Assembly (NCBI GenBank): GCA_965218585.1
Contig: CBDCLE010000004.1
Span: 96,001 to 160,000, forward strand
Direction: 5' to 3'
Length of the DNA stretch: 64,000 nt
From: Terriglobia bacterium
GTDB taxonomy: Bacteria; Acidobacteriota; Terriglobia; 20CM-2-55-15
How positions within the stretch are numbered: the first letter of the stretch is position 1; each line of letters opens with the position of its first letter. Positions 7,280 to 17,930 of this stretch are shown here, piece by piece. Below the pieces are notes generated by a model that saw nothing but the letters and a program-made list of their open reading frames with translations, did no database searches and was not told where the DNA came from. The position numbers and the translations under genes were made by a program.

Positions 7280-7699
7280 TCAGCCTTCGAGAAGCGTTTC
7301 AGTGAGGCGCGACGCAAGGGCATCGATTTCGCCTTCGAGTTTCTTTCGGGCTTCTTCGGTTTCGGCTCCCAGTCGCGCCCTCGCATCCGCGATGATCTGG
7401 TCCGCTTCGCGTCGGGCCTCGCCGAGCAGTCGCGCGCGTTCCTCAAGAGCCTCCTCACGAATGGCTTCCTGGTGCTTGTACGCTTCCGCCCGAGCCTCAC
7501 GAACCGCCGACTCGTATTCGGCGGTCTTTTTCTCTACTTCTTCAATGCGACGCGCTGCTTCCTCGAGGCTGCCTTCCATTGCCTGGCGGCGTTCGGCCAG
7601 AATCCGGGTCACCGGCCCAAAAAAAAACTTGGAAAGAAACACGTATAAGATGGCGACATAGATGATCGTTACGAGGATGGAAAGGTCCAGATCAATCAT
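7280..7699 (-). CDS. Fo ATP synthase subunit b'
   Basis: N-terminal TM, FFGPVTRILAERR, charged helix; first gene of the atp cluster. Confidence 0.85.
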   Translation of the reverse strand: MIDLDLSILVTIIYVAILYVFLSKFFFGPVTRILAERRQAMEGSLEEAARRIEEVEKKTAEYESAVREARAEAYKHQEAIREEALEERARLLGEARREADQIIADARARLGAETEEARKKLEGEIDALASRLTETLLEG

Positions 7700-7787: not shown

Positions 7788-7844
7788 GGCCCTCGGGAGG
7801 CAGGTAGTGCGGGATTAGCGTGTGCTGCCCCTGTGTAGTTAGGT

Positions 7845-8117
7845 TTAGGGTTGCGTGGCAGACTCAACAACGGGGCCTACGACGAACCCGTCGTGTTCAA
7901 TGGTCCAGCCAAGATTCCGAAGGACGCTAAACATCTTATTCGGCCCAATTCTTTCCGTGCTCAGAATCTTTCGTAGATGGTCAGGATTAAGCCCCGCCTC
8001 TTCAGCGAATGTGCCTTGATTTCCCCGTCCGCGTACCTCTGATTCTTCTTGCAACCGCGCAATGAAGACAGCGGTCAGAGCATCCGCCAGAGATAGGGAT
8101 GGGGCATGGCTAGACAT
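7845..8117 (-). CDS. Small putative HTH (XRE-like) DNA-binding protein, transposon passenger
   Basis: NQGTFAEEAGLNPDHLRKIL helix-turn-helix-like pattern. Palindrome TTTGTGTAA-N4-TTACACAAA at 8117-8138 abuts its start. Confidence 0.5.
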   Translation of the reverse strand: MSSHAPSLSLADALTAVFIARLQEESEVRGRGNQGTFAEEAGLNPDHLRKILSTERIGPNKMFSVLRNLGWTIEHDGFVVGPVVESATQP

Positions 8118-8281
8118 TTGTGTAAGCTTTTACACAAACTATGAATTGGAGTGTGGGGCCTCAAATCTCCACATACCATATATTCAATAGTTATTGTGGC
8201 GACCATATAGCATTGGACCAGATATGTCTATTTGTGTATTACTATACACAGATAGAGAGCAGTGCGACTGTTACTCTCTTC

Positions 8282-8310
8282 TTGACGGCATGACGACCAA
8301 TGATTACAAT
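8282..8310 (+). promoter_or_regulatory. Near-consensus sigma70 promoter for the PyrF homolog
   Basis: TTGACG-17 nt-TACAAT. Confidence 0.6.
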
Positions 8311-8402
8311 GAGCGATTCCACCGTGCGGGGCCCCCTCTCGTCCCTGTACAATGGTTATTGGGGCAGTTTTTCCTTTCTTCTGCCTTATCTGGGGTGATT
8401 CA

Positions 8403-9173
8403 ATGGCAACAGTCGGCAATGAAGCCCGCCTGAGGCAGGCAGATCCAACTCTGCCCGCCCGCGAGCGGTTGATCGTTGCGCTCGATTTTAACAACCGCGA
8501 CGATGCGCTGGGGCTTGTTGATAAGCTTCAAGGCGAGGTGGAAACCTATAAAGTAGGCTACGAACTCTTTATCTCTGAAGGGCCGCAGATCATTGTGAGT
8601 CTCGTACAGCACCAGAAGAAAGTGTTTCTCGATCTCAAGATGGATGATATTGGTGTCACCATGTCGCGGGCTGTGACTGCAATCAAGACTCTCGGGGTTT
8701 CTTTTCTGACGCTGAAGGGTAATGGAGCGACTGCAAGAGCGGCACGTGAAGGGCGTGGGGCTGGCCCGCCACCGCTTTTCTTGCAGGTCACGTACTTGTC
8801 GAGTCAAGATGAAGCGGACCTGCACGATGAGTATGGTGCGAATATCCCGCTGCAGCAGTTCATCAGGATTCGGGCAGAAAAGATTCTTGAGGCGGGCTGC
8901 GATGGCGTAATCGCTTCAGGTGCAAGCGTTGGGGATCTTCGAGGTTATTTGGATGGCCGCGTTGCTCGGGTGAAGACGCCAACAATCGTTGTTCCTGGTA
9001 TCAGGCCGGAGTGGGCAGAGCCGGACGACCATAAGAGATTCTTGACGCCAACGGATGCCATTCATACCGGTGCCGACTACTTAGTTGTGGGACGGCCGAT
9101 CAGGCATGCATCCGATCCAGCTGATGCAGCCCATCGAATCATCGACGAAATACATAGCGCATCTAACGTATAA
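8403..9173 (+). CDS. pyrF: Orotidine-5'-phosphate decarboxylase homolog (divergent), transposon passenger
   Basis: RLIVALD, YKVG, FLDLKMDDIG (DxKxxD), PGIRP, DYLVVGRPI. ATG 8403 preferred over the longer ORF-track start. Confidence 0.9.
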   Translation: MATVGNEARLRQADPTLPARERLIVALDFNNRDDALGLVDKLQGEVETYKVGYELFISEGPQIIVSLVQHQKKVFLDLKMDDIGVTMSRAVTAIKTLGVSFLTLKGNGATARAAREGRGAGPPPLFLQVTYLSSQDEADLHDEYGANIPLQQFIRIRAEKILEAGCDGVIASGASVGDLRGYLDGRVARVKTPTIVVPGIRPEWAEPDDHKRFLTPTDAIHTGADYLVVGRPIRHASDPADAAHRIIDEIHSASNV

Positions 9174-9180
9174 AGTTTGA

Positions 9181-9270
9181 CGGAGGGGACGGGATTCGAA
9201 CCCGCGAACTGTGGTATCAGCACAGCGCCCGATCCTAAGTCGGGTCGTTTCACCTGACAACAGCCCCTCC
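9181..9270 (-). tRNA. Atypical class II tRNA, anticodon UAG (Leu), Ser-like acceptor/discriminator, no encoded CCA
   Basis: GGAGGGG/CCCCTCC acceptor, CCCGA-CTTAGGA-TCGGG anticodon arm, CTGTG/CACAG variable arm, GCGGG-TTCGAAT-CCCGT T arm, discriminator G, C at position 8. Confidence 0.8.
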
Positions 9271-9331
9271 GTCAATTCCCCACCCTACCCACTCCGCAGT
9301 CACATCCGGTCCATAACTCTCAACTAATAAC

Positions 9332-9360
9332 TTGCATACGGGCGTATCATATGATACATT
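9332..9360 (+). promoter_or_regulatory. Promoter with overlapping palindromic operator for the RHH gene
   Basis: TTGCAT-17 nt-TACATT; perfect palindrome GTATCATATGATAC at 9344-9357; ATG 6 nt after the -10. Confidence 0.6.
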
Positions 9361-9366
9361 ACATAA

Positions 9367-9531
9367 ATGACGACAAAGACTATTAACCTTCGGGACATGC
9401 CAGAAGATCTAGTGAGGAAAGCCAAGGCACACGCGGCACTAGAGGGAATCAGCCTGAAGGCTCTCGTCATTCAGGCCCTAGACCAGGTTGTCCGAGAGGA
9501 AAAGACAGGAAAGAAGATTAAAGAGAAATAG
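9367..9531 (+). CDS. 54-aa ribbon-helix-helix (Arc/CopG-like) regulator, not in the ORF track
   Basis: Manual translation MTTKTINLRDMPEDLVRKAKAHAALEGISLKALVIQALDQVVREE fits the RHH pattern. Confidence 0.75.
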   Translation: MTTKTINLRDMPEDLVRKAKAHAALEGISLKALVIQALDQVVREEKTGKKIKEK

Positions 9532-9957
9532 ATCGGCCCTGCCCGGTGCGACTAACACCAGACAGGGCCTAACTAACTCACGCGATAGAGCCGCATGAGC
9601 CAGCCATCAAACTCATTGTGAACCTGTCCGCGTGGAAAGGCAAGGTTCACAATGACCTGCATCCACTGCCAGCACGACCGAGTTAGAAAGTCCGGCACCT
9701 ACGGTAAGAAACGCATCCAGCGTTACCGTTGCACGTTCTGCGATAAGACCTTCTCAGAAGCCCAAGAAAAGCCTCTCGGAAAGCTCCGTATATCAGTCGA
9801 GAAAGCCGTCCAGATCGTCAATTGCCTCGTCGAAGGTTGCGGTATCCGTGCCACTTCGAGATTGTGTGACGTAGACGCAAAGACGGTTCTTGCCGTACTT
9901 GAGTTGGCCGGAGAACGATGCCAACGGCTCATGGACCGAAAGTTGTACGGCATCAAT

Positions 9958-10995
9958 CGCTTTGACAACGTAAAAAGAGCCCACCCCCGGGTTAATGGTT
10001 TGTAAGTAAATCCGCCGTCGGGGTTGCGGGAAGTGTGGAAGCCGAAAGCTTCCAAGCCGCGGTGGTAACGCGCCGGCTTTGCAGCGGGTTTCCACGGTGG
10101 CGACACTTTCCACAGCCGCTCGCTCGCGTGTGTTTCACGCGGAACCTTGGGCGGACCGGGGTTTCTTCTTCCGTTTGCCCGCGGCACCGAGACTCTCGGT
10201 GAAGCGGATACTTTCCCAATCGAACTGATGAATCGCACAGTGATGGGTCAATCGGTCCAGCAGGGCCGCGGTCAGGGCGGCATCGCCGAACACGCTGGTC
10301 CACTGCGCAAACGGCAGGTTCGACGTCACGATGAGGGAACCCTTTTCGTACCGGTCCGAGAAGACCTGAAACAGCAACTGGGCACCCTCGGCCGAGAACG
10401 GGATATAGCCGACCTCGTCGACGATGAGCAGCTCGAAGCGGGACAACTTCGCCAGTTGCCGCTTCAACTGTCGCTCCTCACGGGACTCGATCAGCGTATT
10501 GACCCGCCCCGCGGCCGTGGTGAACCCGACGCGGTAGCCCCTCCGGCAGGCTTCCACGCCCAGCACCGTCGCGGCGTGGGTCTTGCCGGTGCCGTGCTTG
10601 CCCAACAGCACGACGTTCTCGCACCGGGTGATGGTGTCGCACTCGGCCGGCTGCTCCCGATCGGCCCGCAGCCAGCCCTCCACGATCCCGGCCACCGGGT
10701 CCATCACCGGACAGGCCGGCTCCTTCTCCCGCCGATACTTCGGCTCCTGGCCGGCCAATACTTTCCGGACCGTCCGTCTCGTGTGCCCGGTCTCCCGGGC
10801 GATCTGTCGAATGCTTTTCTTGTAAACTCGATGTGCGGTCCTGACCATCTCGTACTGATCCATCCCTAACAACTCCTTATCCTCCCTCCGCCATGCCGGT
10901 TCATCCAGGCACTCGCCGGGGGAGGCTATCAGGGTGGGTCCTTTTTCCTCGATCAGAACCCCGTTTGGTGGGTCCTTTTTACGTTATCGAAATCA
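9958..10995 (-). mobile_element. Internally deleted IS21-family element (in-frame istA 5'-istB 3' fusion, ORF 10135-10872)
   Basis: Imperfect IRs containing AACGTAAAAAG; TSD ATCAAT (9952-9957, 10996-11001). IstA HTH N-terminus fused to IstB motifs GKHGTGKT, LLIVDEVG and LLDRL. Confidence 0.88.
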
Positions 10996-11082
10996 ATCAA
11001 TGCACAGCAGATCCAGTGCGACGAAATTTGGACTTTTGTTCAGAAGAAAGAAAGGCGCATTAAACCTTGGGAGAATGGCAAT

Positions 11083-12447
11083 GAGGTCGTTCCAATCGGT
11101 GTGTAAAAAGAGAAGGCGGTGTACGCTTTCGGTGAATTCGAAACCGTAAGCAATCCCGGCAGCAATCGGGAGAAAGGTACACCACCCATGAAGAAGAAGA
11201 ACATACCGGCATCAGTGGCGTCAACGAACGCGTATGAAGGTTTGGAGGACTGGGCGCGATCCCGGGTCCAAGTCTGGCTACAGGAGCTGCTCGAGGACGA
11301 AGTCACTCAATTTCTGGGTCGGGAAAAGTCGGAGCGGAGTCCGAATCGACGAGGATACCGGAACGGTCACGGGAAACCGCGACGCTTCGCAATGATGAAC
11401 GGTACGATGGAGGTTCGACGACCTCGGGTTCGAAACACCGCCGAGCGGTTCGAGAGTCAGATCCTGCCGTATTTTCGACGGAAATCGAAACAGCTGGGCG
11501 AGCTACTTCCCGATCTCTACCTCCACGGTCTGGCCACAGGGGACTTCGAGCAGGCCATGCGCGGACTGCTTGGCGCTGGCGCTCCGTTGTCGCGAGCATC
11601 GATCCAACGACTGAAATCGACCTGGCAGTTGGAGTATGACGAGTGGGTCCAGCAGGACCTGTCCGGCCTCGAGGTCGTGTACCAGTGGGCAGACGGCTTG
11701 TACGTGAAAGCGGGGATCGCGAAAGAGCGAGCGGCATTGCTGGTGATCATCGGAGCCTTGTCAGACGGGCGCAAAGTGCTGTTGGCCTGTGAGAGCGGGC
11801 AGCGGGAAAGCAAGGAGTCCTGGAGCCGCATTCTGCGCAATCTCCAGAGACGGGGCCTGAAGCTGGGACGGCTGACTGTCGCGGACGGTCACCTGGGCAT
11901 CTGGTCCGCGCTGGCCGAGCAACAGCCCCAGGGCCAGGAACAACGCTGCTGGAACCACAAGTCGATCAACGTGGTCGATCATCTGCCGAAGACCGAGCAG
12001 CCCGCGGCCAGACAGCTGCTTCATGGGATGGCCTTCGCGAACTCCCGCGCGGCCTGCGAACGAAAGCGGGATCAGTTCGTCCGCCGATATGAGAAGAACT
12101 ATCCCAAAGCGGGTGAGACGCTGTTGCGGGACTGGGACCGGATGATTACTTTCTATGAGTTCCCGAAACAACACTGGGTGCATCTGAGAACAACCAACAT
12201 CGTCGAATCGCCCTTCGACATGGTTCGCCTCCGCACCAACGCCGCTCGCCGATTCAAGCGTGTCGAGAATGCAACGGCAATGATCTGGAAGCTACTACGT
12301 GTCGCTGAGAAGGCTTGGCGACACTTAAAAGGATCCGAACTCTTACAAGAGGTCTATGATGGTCAGCAATTCGCTGACGGCATCAGAGTCGTGATGAAAT
12401 CGAAGGCCGCCGCCTGATGACTTTTACACACCTTTTGTAATAACCTC
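11083..12447 (+). mobile_element. IS256-family element, transposase about 11188-12417
   Basis: IRs GAGGT...GGTGTGTAAAA; TSD ATGGCAAT; motifs YRNGH, WADGLY, QRCWNHK, LRTTNIVES. Confidence 0.92.
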
Positions 12448-12674
12448 ATGGCAATGAGATCGGAAGCCAGTACGTTTTCGTGGCGTTTGACCGTGACTCG
12501 AAACTCGCTATCAACCACACGATAGGAAAGCGTAGCCCAGCTACAACCCGTCAATTCGTGGGTGACCTGAAACGCCGTGTCAGTGGGAGGGTGCAAATCA
12601 GCACAGACGGATTTGGAGCTTATCTTGGCGCAATCGAGGATACGTTCGGGGCCAACGTCGATTACGCTCAACTA

Positions 12675-13488
12675 GAGCGTGTTAACACTAATGTAGTGCC
12701 TCGACGATGAGTGCGAAGTGAAGGAAAGCGAGGAACATGACGTCGAGTTTATCGAAACGGGAGAAGATACGCCGAAAATCCTTGAGTCGGCGGAAGAGCC
12801 TCTCGACTTCGTTCCTGCGGCGGTAGAGCACGCGGTCGTATTCCCACGGCTCCAGGCGGTTGCGCTTGGGCGGCACGACGGGAATCCACCCAAAATCCAG
12901 AGCCAATTGGCGGGTCTGGTCGTCCTGGTAGGCACGGTCCATCAGCAGCGGCAGTGGCGCGGGCAACGGCCCCAGGCCGGCGAGCAGATCGCGGCCCTGC
13001 GGGGCGTCGTGCGCTTGGCCGGGCGAGAGCGCAAACGTTATCGCCGTTCGAGCATTCGCGGCAACCAGATGAATCTTGGTGGTCCATCCACCGCGGGATT
13101 TGCCGATCGCTTGCGGACCGTTTTTTTTAACGCTCCCGTGCCGTCGGGATGCACCTTCACAATGGTCGAGTCCATCGAAACGGCTTCCACCCGGATGCGC
13201 ACCAGTTGCTCGCGCTGGAGTTTTTCGAAGACGGCGTCGAGCACCCCGTTCTTGGACCAGCGGTTCATCCGGGTGTAGATGGTGTGCCAGTTGCCAAAGC
13301 GCTTGGGCAGACCGCGCCACTTGCAGCCCTGCTCAGCCACATACAAAATGGCGTTCAAGACCGTCAGGTTCGAAAGACTGACGTTGCCCCGCCGACGCGG
13401 CAGTTCCGGCTCGATGCGACAATACTGCTCCTGTGTGATCTCCATGCCTGATTATAAAACATTCATGCTCATTAGTGTTAACACACCC
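12675..13488 (-). mobile_element. IS5-family (IS427-like) element; two ORFs (13038-13445; about 13130 to 12688) joined by a probable programmed frameshift at an A8 run (13121-13128)
   Basis: IRs containing GTGTTAACACTAATG; TA duplication; motifs GCKWRGLP, SRGGWTTKIH, YRRRNEVERLF. Confidence 0.9.
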
Positions 13489-13833
13489 TAGTGAAGGTCT
13501 ACCAGAATGAACCCGCAAGGCGAGGACGTTATGCCCCATCGAAGTTCGTCCGGGCGATCTCAACCACCATATCGGGCAATCCCGATCCCAAGCTCATCTG
13601 TACGTCCCACGTCGAACGATGCAATCTCACTATGCGCACCTTCATGCGGCGATTGACGCGCCTATGCCTCGGATTCTCGAAGAAGTTGGACAATCTGAAA
13701 GCCGCAGTCGCATTGCATTTCGCGTGGTACAACTTCTGCCGGGTTCACAGGAGCCTTCGGGTGACTCCTTGTATGGAGGCTGGGTTGGAGGATCATATCT
13801 GGACGATTGAGGAGCTAATCGCATGAGATACTA

Positions 13834-15072
13834 CTACTATGTTACAAACGGTCTATTTTATGTTAGCATCCGGTCATGAGCGCCAAATCGAAGGCGCCAG
13901 GCACTCAGGAAAAACGTTTTGCGGCCTATTTGGAACGCCTGGCGTCGGCCGCAGGACACGCCGATCGTCATGAACCGTTGAAGTCGTACTGCACCGGGTT
14001 GTTGCTGCCGATCAAACGTAAGAGTGTGGAGCCGATGGCTGCACGATTGGCTCCGGATAATGTACGCCGAATGCACCAGTCGCTACATCATCTGGTCGCG
14101 GATGCGCCCTGGGACGATGCGGCTCTGTTGGCAGAAGTTCGACAGTACGCGCTGGGGGCGATGGAAGCCAACGGTCCGATTGAAGCCTGGATTGTCGACG
14201 ACACCGGATTCGTGAAAAAGGGGACCCACTCGGTGGGTGTGGCCCGGCAATACTGTGGACAGGTCGGCAAACCTGAGAACTGCCGGGTGGCGGTGAGCCT
14301 GTCGGTGGCGACAGCGAAATCCAGCTTGCCGGTGGCATGGCGACTCTACCTCCCCGAGACCTGGGCGAAGGATCCGGAACGTCGAAGCAAAGCCGCTATT
14401 CCCGAAGACGTTCGATTTCAAACTAAACCTCAAATTGCTTTGGAACAAATCCGGCAGGCCGTCGATGACGGCATTGCTCCGGCACCGGTTCTGGGCGATA
14501 CGGCCTACGGCAACAACTACAAGTTCCGGCACGGCATCACCGAACTCGGACTTAGCTACGTCCTAGGGGTGCAAGGCACCACGACCGTGTGGAAACCGGG
14601 CCAGGGTCCCTTGCCGCCGAAATCCTTGACCGGCCGCGGACGGACACCGACCCGCATGCAGCGCAACAAGAAACATCAACCGGTTTCGGTCAAGCAACTG
14701 GCCCTCTCGTTGTCTCCCCAGCGTTGGAAGAACGTCTCCTGGCGCGAAGGCACCTCCGAGACCCTGCGTTCCCGTTTCGCCGCAGTTCGCATTCGTCCCG
14801 CTCATCTGGATCACGAGCGCCACTCGCCGCATCCGAAAGAGTGGTTGTTGGTCGCCGAGCGGAGCTGTTTTTCCCCCTCTGCATTTGTCGAGCATGTTGG
14901 ACTATCCGTCCCCAAACTCCCCAAACACTTCAAACCCCGCAGAACCCCGGATCCGGCCCGAACGACATAACCCCTGCTCGATTGCCACGCTTCGCATTCG
15001 CATCGCCCGCTTCCTGATTCAGCAGCTTCCTCATTGTCCGTTCTGTGGACCGCTTCGTTTATAACACAGTAG
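13834..15072 (+). mobile_element. IS701-family element copy 1; transposase 13876-14970 with a 3' internal deletion
   Basis: IRs CTACT(A/G)TGTTA(C/T)AAACG; TSD TACTA; motifs VDDTGFVKKG and ARQYCG. Lacks the RWIIERDYQELK segment present in copy 2. Confidence 0.9.
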
Positions 15073-15119
15073 TACTACAAGGGCTACAGGAAAAAAATAT
15101 CAGAACAAAAGCACACGCT

Positions 15120-16752
15120 GATATGGATTGACCCTGTCAAGCTTCCGTTACGTTTCTCGAATGCGCCTCCTTCAATGTGCTGGATTCAGGGCGCGGCCGG
15201 CATGATTCGCGACGGTGGATCACTCTGATATTCGTGGGTTGGCTACCACCTGACATCACTTCGTCGCGGAGCTGCCTCGGTCTAAGGACGTGGGTCGGTC
15301 TGGCTGAGCCAAGCCTCTCATAGCGTGCACGAGGATTCTCCTCACCGGCCTGCCACGCCCTGAATCCAACACATTACGTTTTTTGGGTCCAGCCTTGCTC
15401 CGGAAGCGCATGATGGCATTGCGCCCGGGGAGGCGTCGGAGGAGTTTTCCACACCTTGTCCATGGCACCGCGTGCTTCGAATACACGGCGGAGCAGTGGC
15501 AAGGTGTGGAGAACTCCGGCCCATCTCTCAGCTCCGCGCCCGCGTTGCATGGGCTCGGCCCATCACCTCGCAAGCAATCGCCCAGATGAACCCCACCAGC
15601 TCGCGGGCCACCGCGGTGGTGACCACGCACTTCGCCTTGCCCGCGCTATACAGATGCCGGTACCGCGCACACAGCCGCTTCTGGGCTGCCCAGGCGATGG
15701 CCTGCACTGCTGGCGGCGCCGCACTCGCCTTGCATCTCAAGTGCCTGGTTTTGCGCGCAGGGAACCGGTAGCTCCAGGCCGATTCAACCAGCACGCGGCG
15801 CACGTGTCCATTGCCTGTTTTCGTGATGGCTCCTTGGCGCCGCCGCGGCCCCGAGGAGTGCTCGCTCGGCACCAGCCCCAGAAAGCTCATCAGCTCGCGC
15901 GGCGAATCAAAACGCGTCAGGTCCCCGAGTTCGGCCAGCACCGTCATGGCCGTGACCACATCCACCCCGCGCAACGCGATCAGCGCCTCGACCATCGGAC
16001 GCAGCGACCACCGCTCCAACACCTCGCGCATCTGCCCTTCCAGGCCCGCCACGCGGCGGCGCGCCTCCATCACCGTATCGACGTATTCCTGAAACACCAC
16101 CTGCTGTACCGGATGCTCGAACCGCTGCTCCTCCAGCCACCGAAAGTGCCGTTGCGTCCACCGGCTCTTGCCTTCCCGATACACTCGATCATGACGCAGC
16201 AGAAACACCCCCAGTCGCTGCCGAGCCTTGGCCTCGATCGCCTTCATGTCCTCGCGCGCCCGCGTCAGGTCGCGCATCGCCTCCTGCTCCTCGTCGGGCA
16301 CCCACACCGCCGTCAGCTCCCCCGACCGATGCAGCCGCGCCAGCTTCACCGCGTCGCGCCGATCCGTCTTCACTCGCTCCCCCGCGCGCCGCGGGATCAG
16401 GCTCGGCGCGACCACCTCGCAATAGTGGCCGGTGTCGATGATCTCTCGATACACCCCATACCCGCACGGTCCCGCCTCGTAGCAGAAGCTCAACACCTCT
16501 GCGTGCGGACTCAGGCTGCGAATGAGTCGCAGCAGCGATTTGCGTTGATTCTTGATCTCGCCCCGGTACACCGGCGCCTCACGTCCGGGCAGCGCTACCG
16601 CCACCGCGATCGTGTCCTTGTGAACGTCCAGTCCAACGTATGCACTACACTTGTTCATGACCTGCCCTCCTCGTTGTGGCTCTGTGTCGAAGGTTCCTCG
16701 CCCCGCAACATAACCCACGCGTACGAGGCCAGGGCAGGTCAATCCATGGTGT
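15120..16752 (-). mobile_element. IS110-family (IS1111 group) element inserted in the IRR of the IS1 transposon; transposase about 15528-16658/16742
   Basis: Motifs VGLDVHK, CYEAGP, KTDRRDA, GLVPSEHSSG. Sub-terminal IRs ATGGATTGACC; duplicated CT core at both junctions; about 400-nt non-coding region downstream of the transposase. Confidence 0.92.
15174..15375 (-). ncRNA. Candidate bridge/seek RNA of the IS1111-group element
   Basis: Closing stem (15174-15197 with 15352-15375) encloses four short segments that match target and donor halves in the expected order. Confidence 0.55.
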
Positions 16753-16901
16753 CTAATCCCGCACTACCGGGAGGCAAGAGTTGGCCGTCTTTCGGGGCCT
16801 CTCCGCGCATTTTCCTGGTAGGCGGTGCTGGCACGCCCGGCACCGTTCTTATGAAAGGACTTTCGTCGTTTGGTGGGACCCCTTATCTCCGCAGAAAGGA
16901 G

Positions 16902-17930
16902 TCACACAACGTGGATGCAGGCTTCGCTGTGCGGAAGAGCGCGGCCGATTTCAGCGACATCGATGCCCTCCCCAACAAGTGCATCGATCAGGCTGGAAGA
17001 ATCTGCTTCGTTTATGAAAATAAGCAAGCCACCGGAGGTCTGGGGATCGAATAGAACGCTCTGGTGGTCTTCCGGTATCTGGGGACTCCAGGTGACGTGG
17101 GGAGAAAAGAATTCGCGATTGCTGTTCAATCCGCCAGCGCGGTGCCCCTTGGCGCTGTAATCGAGAGCACCATCAAAGATCGGCAGGCGGGTGTGGTCGA
17201 CTTCGATGGTCAGATTGCTGGCGCGCGCCACTTCAACGGCATGGCCTGTCAAACCAAAACCACTGATATCGGTCATCGTGCGGACGTCGAACTGAGACAC
17301 GATTTCGGCTGCCCTCTTATTGGTTTCAATCATCGAACGGAGCGCGGCATCAACATGCGCTGCCTCCGCCTCTTCTCTCTTCGAGGCTGTCGCGATGAGT
17401 CCCGTCCCCAGGCGTTTGGTCAGCAACACGCTGTCGCCGGCGAGCGCTCCACTGTTATCTCGAATCCGTGTGGGATCCACAGTCCCCGTCACTGCATAGC
17501 CAAACTTTATCTCTTCGTCCTTAACCGAATGCCCTCCCAGCAGCGCCACACCGCACTCGTTGAGCTTGTCCAAACCCCCGTCAATGATGTCCCTCAGCAG
17601 GCTGGGATCCGCCTTGCCTTCCGGAAAACCTACGACCGAAAGCGCCGTCAGGGGCGTAGCGCCCATCGCGTATATGTCGCTCAACGCGTTTGCTGCGGCG
17701 ATCTGCCCGAAGGAGAAAGCGTCATCAACGATGGGTGCAAAGAAATCGACGGTTTGGACCAGGGCGATATCGTCGGTGAGGCGATACACTCCGGCGTCAT
17801 CGGCATGATCGAAGCCGACGAGGATTTCAGGAATTTGCTGGGCCTTGAGGCCTTTGAGCGCGCGGTCCAAGTCCCTTGGACTTAACTTACCTGCTCAGCC
17901 GGCACATTTCGCAAAACTAGTTAGCTTCAT
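16902..17930 (-). CDS. selD: Selenide, water dikinase, Sec-containing (UGA at 17895-17897)
   Basis: True start ATG 17930 after RBS GAGGGAG gives MKLTSFAKCAG-U-AGKLSP. Motifs DDAGVY, QTVDFF, DIYAMG, GGHS, DPQTSGGLL. Hairpin AAGTCC-AAG-GGACTT lies about 11 nt after the UGA. Confidence 0.93.

Follow-up and report, generated by a model that had tools for sequence, protein, structure and literature searches.

The 64,000-nucleotide stretch analysed here (the window; C4:96001-160000 of a 4.55-Mb, 26-contig genome of a Terriglobia bacterium) carries a single insertion of a ~2.85-kb IS1-type unit between an ATP-synthase b' gene and selD. The passenger DNA of this unit comprises a second gene for orotidine 5'-monophosphate (OMP) decarboxylase, pyrF, an irregular class-II tRNA gene with the anticodon UAG, and two genes for small putative regulators. 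We consider it probable that the unit is an immobile transporter insertion sequence (IS) from a divergent branch of the IS1 family, and that its cargo consists of three independent cassettes and not of one machine. Positions of the element and its parts are given in window coordinates.

The insertion, its transposase and its relatives

An 8,966-bp block (7803-16768) separates the ATP-synthase b' gene (7280-7699, minus strand) from selD (16902-17870, minus strand). The block starts at 7803 with GGTAGTGCGGGATTAG and ends at 16768 with the exact reverse complement of this sequence. As the sequence stands, the repeat is perfect over 16 nt (7803-7818 / 16753-16768), and the 16-mer was found at these two places only in the whole 4.55-Mb genome. 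Once an IS110-family element nested in the right end is removed, leaving one CT core, the right end matches the left end at 24 out of 24 positions (GGTAGTGCGGGATTAGCGTGTGCT). The parts of the element are as follows (HTH, helix-turn-helix; RHH, ribbon-helix-helix; ORF, open reading frame).

7795-7802, no strand: left 8-bp target site duplication, GGGAGGCA, identical to 16769-16776
7803-7826, plus strand: left inverted repeat (IRL), 24 nt, beginning GGTAGTG; same start in 18 of 20 related loci
7845-8117, minus strand: XRE/CI-like HTH gene, 90 aa, reading outward toward IRL
8116-8256, no strand: divergent HTH-pyrF control region with related palindromes at 8116-8138 and 8227-8256
8403-9173, plus strand: divergent second pyrF gene for OMP decarboxylase; product of 256 aa if started at the ATG (8403), ORF open from 8352
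9179-9271, minus strand: irregular class-II tRNA, anticodon UAG, acceptor GGAGGGG, discriminator G; called by ARAGORN as a 93-nt tRNA-Leu(UAG)
9344-9373, pointing at the tRNA: 14-nt perfect palindrome (9344-9357) shortly before the RHH start, within a promoter-like site on the minus strand (9373-9346)
9367-9531, plus strand: RHH protein, 54 aa, weak profile support
9613-9655, no strand: perfect inverted repeat, 13-nt arms and 17-nt spacer, spanning the transposase start codon (9652)
9652-9956, 11001-11082, 12456-12675 and 13492-13826, plus strand: IS1-family transposase gene in four pieces, 313 aa read through
16755-16768, minus strand: outer part of the right inverted repeat; inner part at 15110-15119, IS110 between them
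16769-16776, no strand: right 8-bp target site duplication, copy of 7795-7802

The element's own pieces sum to 2,849 bp, and the cargo (7827-9651) makes up ~64% of this length. In three of four same-genus genomes the site is empty; there, ~200-275 bp separate the upstream region of the b' gene from the selD 3' end, and an insert is absent. The G+C content of the cargo is 0.52, compared to 0.57-0.58 in the flanks. Contigs from run X2, which belongs to a second study, reproduced the left junction and two nested junctions with zero differences. No contig crossed a nested IS with at least 30 letters on each side, and the un-nested form of the element was not seen among them; this check used contigs only, and stretches without cover carry no meaning.

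These results bear on an earlier note on the same DNA, made from the letters alone, which had described one IS1-family transposon of ~2,854 bp with passenger genes filling over half of it, 24-bp perfect inverted repeats, an 8-bp target duplication and a 313-aa transposase that reassembles in frame. The unit ends, the duplication (GGGAGGCA at 7795-7802 and at 16769-16776) and the empty sites in the congeners bear out the transposon with its passengers, and the cargo share agrees with the estimate given. The transposase is likewise recovered, as its four pieces join and match a paralogue on contig C7 end to end. The 24-bp repeats hold once the nested IS110 is taken out and not in the sequence as it stands, where 16 nt are perfect, and the size is adjusted to the 2,849 bp obtained here.

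The joined 313-aa frame is open and collinear over its full length with the C7 paralogue, which is intact, 315 aa long and ~56% identical. The pieces in the window score 47.8 and 18.8 bits with NF033558 (cut-off 100) and 19.9 bits with PF03400 (cut-off 24.1). For the paralogue, the best NCBIfam family is again NF033558, at 87.6 bits (cut-off 100), and PF03400 (DDE_Tnp_IS1) reaches 30.1 bits (cut-off 24.1). A CxxC ... CxxC motif is present N-terminally in the translation of 9652-10005, where NF050000 gives a borderline 27.7 bits against a cut-off of 28. On these profile matches the transposase is assigned to a divergent single-ORF branch of the IS1 family. The inverted repeat that covers its start codon is a putative operator or RNA hairpin.

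Five nested ISs were delimited by means of other genomic copies (BLAST of the block against the whole genome), and Pfam supports the transposase families.

9957-10995, minus strand: IS21 derivative, internally deleted, with an IstB-like ORF; duplication ATCAA
11083-12447, plus strand: IS256-family element; 8-bp duplication ATGGCAAT; more than 60 genomic copies
12676-13491, minus strand: IS5-like element, sitting in a CTAG target
13829-15077, plus strand: IS701-like (DDE_5) element; ~213 bp present in other copies are missing here
15115-16756, minus strand: IS110-family element inside the right inverted repeat, at an ACG-CT-AA site

Three of these split the transposase gene and one splits the right end; inactivated by the five ISs, the element is now immobile. 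All five later insertions are confined to the transposase gene and right end, ~1.0 kb together, and the 1.85 kb of cargo has received none. With five events, this sparing of the cargo is only suggestive. Each of the five full IS110 copies of the genome lies between ACG-CT and CT-AA, beyond which the flanks are not related to one another. This pattern fits sequence-specific insertion at an ACGCTAA-like site, and we therefore place the nested IS110 in such a site within the right inverted repeat. The other four full copies are on C16, C10, C4:166511-168152 and C19. In the nested IS21 copy, an internal deletion joins the start of the element to the IstB-like part.

Of 401 phylum genomes, 68 (with the unpublished G189 counted in) contain a match to the C-terminal piece of the transposase. 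Twenty of these loci were taken with 4 kb on each side for delimitation of the ends. GGTAGTG-type repeat pairs were found in 18 of them, and a perfect 8-bp duplication in 16 of these 18. The 18 delimited elements are 1,336-4,263 bp long and 17 exceed 2 kb, so cargo is the rule in this lineage. At least three more cargo-bearing elements are present in this genome, on C7, C22 and C26; the C7 element measures 2,843 bp, and both it and the C26 element have a perfect 8-bp duplication. The cargo itself is diverse, with 63 of 85 lineage cargo ORFs having no relative among the others. Among the 20 largest, Pfam matches at or above the cut-off were obtained for Fic, HTH_3 (three ORFs), DUF3800 and OMPdecase, and the other 14 gave none; one of the HTH_3 proteins also has a weak, cut-off-level match to peptidase M78.

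The element on C22 (~177.7-180.3 kb; L002 1180-3799) has 34-nt repeats with 85% complementarity, a 55-aa ORF with a Cys motif, a 131-aa ORF and a frameshifted transposase gene. A basic, Lys/Gly-rich protein of 74-100 aa is the first gene inside the left repeat in six of the 18 delimited elements (L204, L207, L208, L215, L216 and L221), and is also present on the metagenome contig L007 (3758-3994); it matched no Pfam or NCBIfam family. A ZTP riboswitch (L087 964-1052) and a SAM riboswitch (L205 624-739) lie in locus flanks and are unrelated to the finding.

At the insertion site, the element has separated the ATP-synthase b' gene from its former upstream region. The HTH gene is directed outward, across the left repeat and to the b' gene, and transcripts that leave the element may now either drive the atp genes or disturb them.

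The second pyrF

The cargo PyrF matches PF00215 (E 1.4e-43) and passes the equivalog family NF001273 (202.5 bits vs a cut-off of 193). In an end-to-end alignment with solved OMP decarboxylases, D-x-K-x-x-D, PGIRP, GRP and both the Asp and the Lys of the N-terminal part are conserved; the cargo motif D-L-K-M-D-D aligns with D-L-K-F-H-D of the solved chain 1eix_A. By these matches, the gene is a true pyrF-type OMP decarboxylase gene and its product is predicted to be catalytically complete. It is also the second genomic copy, as the host's own pyrF lies at C2:212599-213282 and is 40-42% identical to it. Among 41 relatives, two pyrF copies were found in this genome and in none of the 40 others. 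The host copy has, as its nearest named neighbour in the PyrF tree, a record from Acidobacteriota.

The closest relatives of the cargo PyrF are five metagenome proteins (P0002-P0005, 56-66% identity, and P0022), beyond which there is a continuum of ordinary pyrF at ~50% identity. The search for loci with the single cargo PyrF protein gave no match in either collection. With the P0001-P0005 alignment, identity was at most 51% among the matches listed. Among plasmid records, 34 have a pyrF with less than 60% identity, and 30 of these 34 are non-mobilizable; the 12 rows listed reach no more than 40% and are mostly megabase-sized replicons.

We found pyrF inside further IS1-type elements. In genome G042, which has its host pyrF elsewhere, a 3,106-bp element (L209) with 17-nt repeats and the duplication CCGCCACC carries pyrF between the transposase gene and the right end. 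On the metagenome contig L007, an 84-aa RHH-like ORF comes after a GGTAGTG-type left end, and pyrF begins within this ORF; on another metagenome contig (L011) the transposase C-terminus is followed by pyrF and then by a right end. In the window, L007 and L209, pyrF has a small putative DNA-binding gene as its neighbour. The clade of the window copy, L007 and L209 occupy three separate branches of a FastTree built from 210 PyrF rows; pyrF was therefore either taken up repeatedly or has travelled with such elements over a very long period. A recurrent pyrF passenger in IS1 elements was not found in print in the literature searched.

At least two PF00215 matches occur in 17 of the 401 phylum genomes, all of which were inspected (the tally includes the unpublished G063, G086 and G189). 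The second match reaches at least 160 bits in three of them only (G000, which is the genome of the window, G042 and G180), and in two of these three it lies inside an IS1-type element. The second pyrF of G180 (L245) is on a short contig, with no IS1 end, transposase or tRNA within 1.5 kb. The extra matches of the other 14 genomes score at most 126 bits; we rejected them as second pyrF genes, and they are probably other superfamily members or fragments.

The tRNA and the small regulators

The best Rfam model for the cargo tRNA is tRNA-Sec (RF01852), at 43.9 bits and so under the gathering score of 47. Its anticodon loop (CUUAGGA) and anticodon stem are regular, the variable arm is long, and the D arm reads as a long stem capped by a tetraloop. 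Two foldings of the acceptor branch are possible, one of them 7/5 with a single G-U pair and the other with a shorter T stem and a longer acceptor, the 8th pair of which would be C x U. In the alignment to the Rfam tRNA-Sec model, the T stem has 4 bp and the acceptor is long, with one non-standard pair; drawn by hand, 7/5 is equally possible. The host has its own canonical 83-nt tRNA-Leu(UAG) on C22.

All five host tRNA-Leu genes begin with GCC or GCG and have A73; all four host tRNA-Ser genes have GGAG(A/G)(A/G) acceptors and G73. With its acceptor GGAGGGG and G73, the cargo tRNA follows the host Ser pattern. Mukai et al. 2017 (PMC5389517) argue that serine identity follows from G73 or U73 together with a long variable arm. 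From the Ser-type acceptor, G73 and the long arm, taken together with this argument, we infer that the cargo tRNA is charged with serine. That work also describes tRNA-Sec-like tRNAs with many non-serine anticodons, listing CUA-reading ones for the 9/3 group, and links such tRNAs to transposable elements and toxin-antitoxin loci in Acidobacteria.

Other elements of the lineage also contain tRNA-like genes. In L211, from another family of the phylum, an 88-nt tRNA(UAG) with the acceptor GGAGGGA and G73 is located 104 bp upstream of the transposase gene. Further in-element genes were found in L205 (anticodon AGC) and L214 (anticodon GGA, 75 nt only), and the C22 element of this genome has one as well:

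L002 2074-2162: class-II tRNA of the C22 element, 89 nt, anticodon UGC, C33; RF00005 36.3 bits; ~130 bp upstream of the transposase gene

In total, three of the 18 delimited relatives and two elements of this genome (the one in the window and that on C22) hold such genes. The chance expectation is about one tRNA per 100 kb, and the element DNA examined amounts to ~52 kb. An explicit link of such tRNAs to this IS1 lineage was not found in print in the literature searched.

The HTH protein matched no Pfam or NCBIfam family. Its neighbours in a protein atlas are XRE/CI repressor clusters (score 0.94), a language-model similarity that serves as a lead only. Around the divergent HTH-pyrF region, promoter-like sites were found at 8282-8310 (plus strand) and 8230-8202 (minus strand). 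The RHH protein scored 23.7 bits as a FitA-like RHH (cut-off 27) and 21.2 bits as HicB (cut-off 21), and matched a PHROG Arc-like repressor with E 0.0065.

The earlier note had listed as passengers an HTH protein, a PyrF homologue of decarboxylase fold, an atypical tRNA and an RHH regulator, with promoter or operator signals. Its decarboxylase can now be named as a pyrF-type OMP decarboxylase and second genomic copy (NF001273, PF00215 and the catalytic motif). The tRNA is indeed non-canonical, with its Ser-type acceptor, UAG anticodon and tRNA-Sec-like build, and operator-like palindromes and promoter-like sites were located where that note had put them. Of the two regulators, the RHH protein is upheld with weak profiles and the HTH protein by language-model similarity only.

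In three metagenome runs from two studies, the bin 9155-9465, which covers the tRNA and the RHH start, had a summed contig depth of 23-40 vs ~2 in its neighbours. Part of this bin lies on more abundant contigs in those samples.

Weighing the explanations, and known systems

In the reading that we favour, an XRE-like repressor gene would be divergent from the second pyrF, with two putative palindromic operators between them, so that the first cassette would provide a separately regulated OMP decarboxylase. We favour the view that this extra pyrF is kept for useful extra, or less inhibitor-sensitive, OMP decarboxylase activity. The second cassette would be the tRNA-Sec-like tRNA with its own promoter-like site (9373-9346); its acceptor, G73 and long arm would fit seryl-tRNA synthetase. 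As its anticodon reads the rare Leu codon CUA, it could bring about low-level Ser insertion, or act as a non-decoding RNA as proposed for allo-tRNAs. The third cassette is the RHH protein, which probably represses the tRNA promoter, the transposase promoter, or both; its likely targets would be the palindrome 9344-9357 and the repeat 9613-9655.

The main question is whether these parts belong together. The pyrF stop codon and the 3' end of the tRNA are convergent and 6 nt apart, each gene has promoter-like or operator-like sites, and the earlier note had read the enzyme and the tRNA as a compact mobile module for nucleotide or translation stress, anti-phage defence or addiction; in this rival reading, both small regulators would have co-evolved with them as one mobile unit. 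In other elements the pair does not recur: a tRNA is present in none of the three other IS1-linked pyrF cargos (L209, L007 and L011), and pyrF in none of the four other tRNA-bearing elements (C22/L002, L205, L211 and L214). Among 160 ordinary pyrF loci, six have a tRNA within 600 bp. Five of these are same-strand tRNA-His genes. The sixth is the metagenome locus L009 (2512-3601), where a pyrF 50% identical to the cargo copy faces an odd tRNA 67 bp away. The 5' end of this tRNA directly adjoins what looks like 29 residues left over from another pyrF N-terminus, and a dGTPase-like gene lies upstream. Facing genes beside a pyrF remnant speak for the module; against it, the L009 tRNA is of another class than that of the window (74-nt class-I, with an 8-nt anticodon loop and two acceptor mismatches), and no IS1 ends were found nearby. 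L009 looks like an in-place replacement of a native pyrF. The pair, whose complete absence elsewhere the earlier note had named as the sign of chance capture, comes close to this, with L009 as the sole partial case. None of the three cargo proteins matched a PADLOC defence family; weak RHH/antitoxin-type matches were the only ones obtained, and a search for a toxin partner ORF found none. PyrF, moreover, resembles an ordinary OMP decarboxylase. We consider the single module quite improbable.

A different use of the tRNA would be that of a private decoder supplying CUA for the element's own genes, and setting transposase and regulator levels thereby. Among 1,420 long ORFs of the genome, only 3.2% of Leu codons are CUA, a rare codon in this host; the RHH gene (3 of 6 Leu codons), the HTH gene (2 of 9) and the transposase gene (3 of 24) are enriched in it. 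However, pyrF has no CUA (0 of 24), the transposase gene of L211 has none among its 27 Leu codons despite its tRNA(UAG), and CUA makes up 37 of 390 Leu codons (9.5%) in 16 related transposase genes that come with no such tRNA. As the tRNA-less relatives are also CUA-rich, the enrichment is a lineage trait and is not tied to the tRNA. A serine-type acceptor would in addition insert Ser and not Leu. For the anticodon UAG, the idea of a private tRNA for the element's own rare codons is rejected on the L211 and lineage codon counts, and as an account of the cargo it is very improbable.

The remaining rivals concern the element as a whole. The transposase gene begins 1.85 kb from the left end, as would be expected if host DNA with pyrF and the tRNA simply lay between a stray IS1 end and an IS1 copy. 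This is scarcely credible: the 8-bp duplication matches at both ends, the empty site in three of four congeners contradicts it, the cargo has a lower G+C than the flanks, pyrF and tRNA(UAG) are both second genomic copies, and 17 of 18 relatives hold 1-3 kb of cargo within their repeats. More deserving of attention, and still unlikely in our view, is that the cargo genes are neutral hitch-hikers captured by chance, with no maintained host function, in a locus that is decaying. The element is riddled by five ISs and immobile, the genome has dozens of IS copies, and the lineage cargo is very varied, as the 63 of 85 unrelated ORFs indicate. On the other side, none of the five ISs lies in the 1.85 kb of cargo, all being in the ~1.0 kb of transposase gene and right end, the frame and catalytic residues of pyrF are intact, and pyrF and a Ser-type tRNA(UAG) each recur in separate elements.

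Several points weigh against our own reading of independent, functional cassettes. The activity, aminoacylation and regulation that it ascribes to the cargo are all predictions from sequence. The element is dead, and its cargo may be decaying with it. The X8 RNA library gave one 216-nt contig within pyrF; this is too little for a claim of expression, and the library could contain DNA. Nothing in the cargo PyrF sequence points to altered inhibitor sensitivity. The 20 largest lineage cargo ORFs hold no duplicated housekeeping target besides the pyrF of L209, and the idea of a resistant target is therefore unsupported by the rest of the lineage. The module comparison covers three IS1-linked pyrF genes, four tRNA elements and 160 pyrF loci, and leaves out the contigs of P0002-P0005 and P0022; the 6-nt spacing and L009 may still reflect some link between pyrF and the tRNA.

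The usual picture of an IS is that of a bare transposase gene, but throughout this IS1 lineage cargo is the rule. If the mismatched tRNAs decode, transposons could be a natural route to codon reassignment or conditional mistranslation. If the extra pyrF gives tolerance to nucleoside antibiotics, it would represent a new class of mobile target-duplication resistance in soil bacteria. A bolder proposal joins the two, such that the lineage spreads identity-mismatched tRNAs, with regulated Leu-to-Ser recoding of CUA, along with repressor-controlled pyrF protecting against natural OMP-decarboxylase inhibitors; we regard it as doubtful.

The best analogy that we can offer for the cargo pyrF is a drug-target second copy. 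Mobile second copies of housekeeping drug targets, such as dfrA, sul and mupA, confer tolerance. The likeness is that of a divergent extra gene for an essential enzyme, on a mobile element and with its own regulator, for which a natural inhibitor exists; pyrazofurin is described, in the available part of PMC8724604, as a natural product targeting OMP decarboxylase. Unlike those copies, these pyrF genes come with no known resistance phenotype, inhibitor-insensitive residue or producer cluster, and the comparison is offered as an analogy only.

The cargo tRNA is compared here with the allo-tRNAs of Mukai et al. 2017 by description; the IS1 family is not named in the part of PMC5389517 available. 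It shares with the allo-tRNAs described there the match to the tRNA-Sec model, the long variable arm, the long D stem with its tetraloop, G73 and an anticodon for a non-serine codon. It differs in that the 8/4 or 9/3 branch by which they are defined is not clear, 7/5 fitting at least as well.

With the IS1 family the element has in common the DDE transposase, the N-terminal Cys motif and IS1 profiles as the best match. Terminal inverted repeats and a target duplication of 8-9 bp are typical of this family, and ~24-nt repeats and 8 bp are found here. Classical IS1 has two reading frames joined by a programmed -1 frameshift, in contrast to the single 313-aa frame of this element. Even the intact paralogue stays under the NCBIfam IS1 cut-off (87.6 vs 100 bits), and, unlike in the family at large, cargo that includes tRNA genes and pyrF is the rule in this lineage. 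ISs that carry passenger genes, termed tIS, are an established category in the available part of PMC7986276. The element shares with them the placement of four cargo features between IRL and the transposase gene, inside the target duplication, at a site that is empty in congeners.

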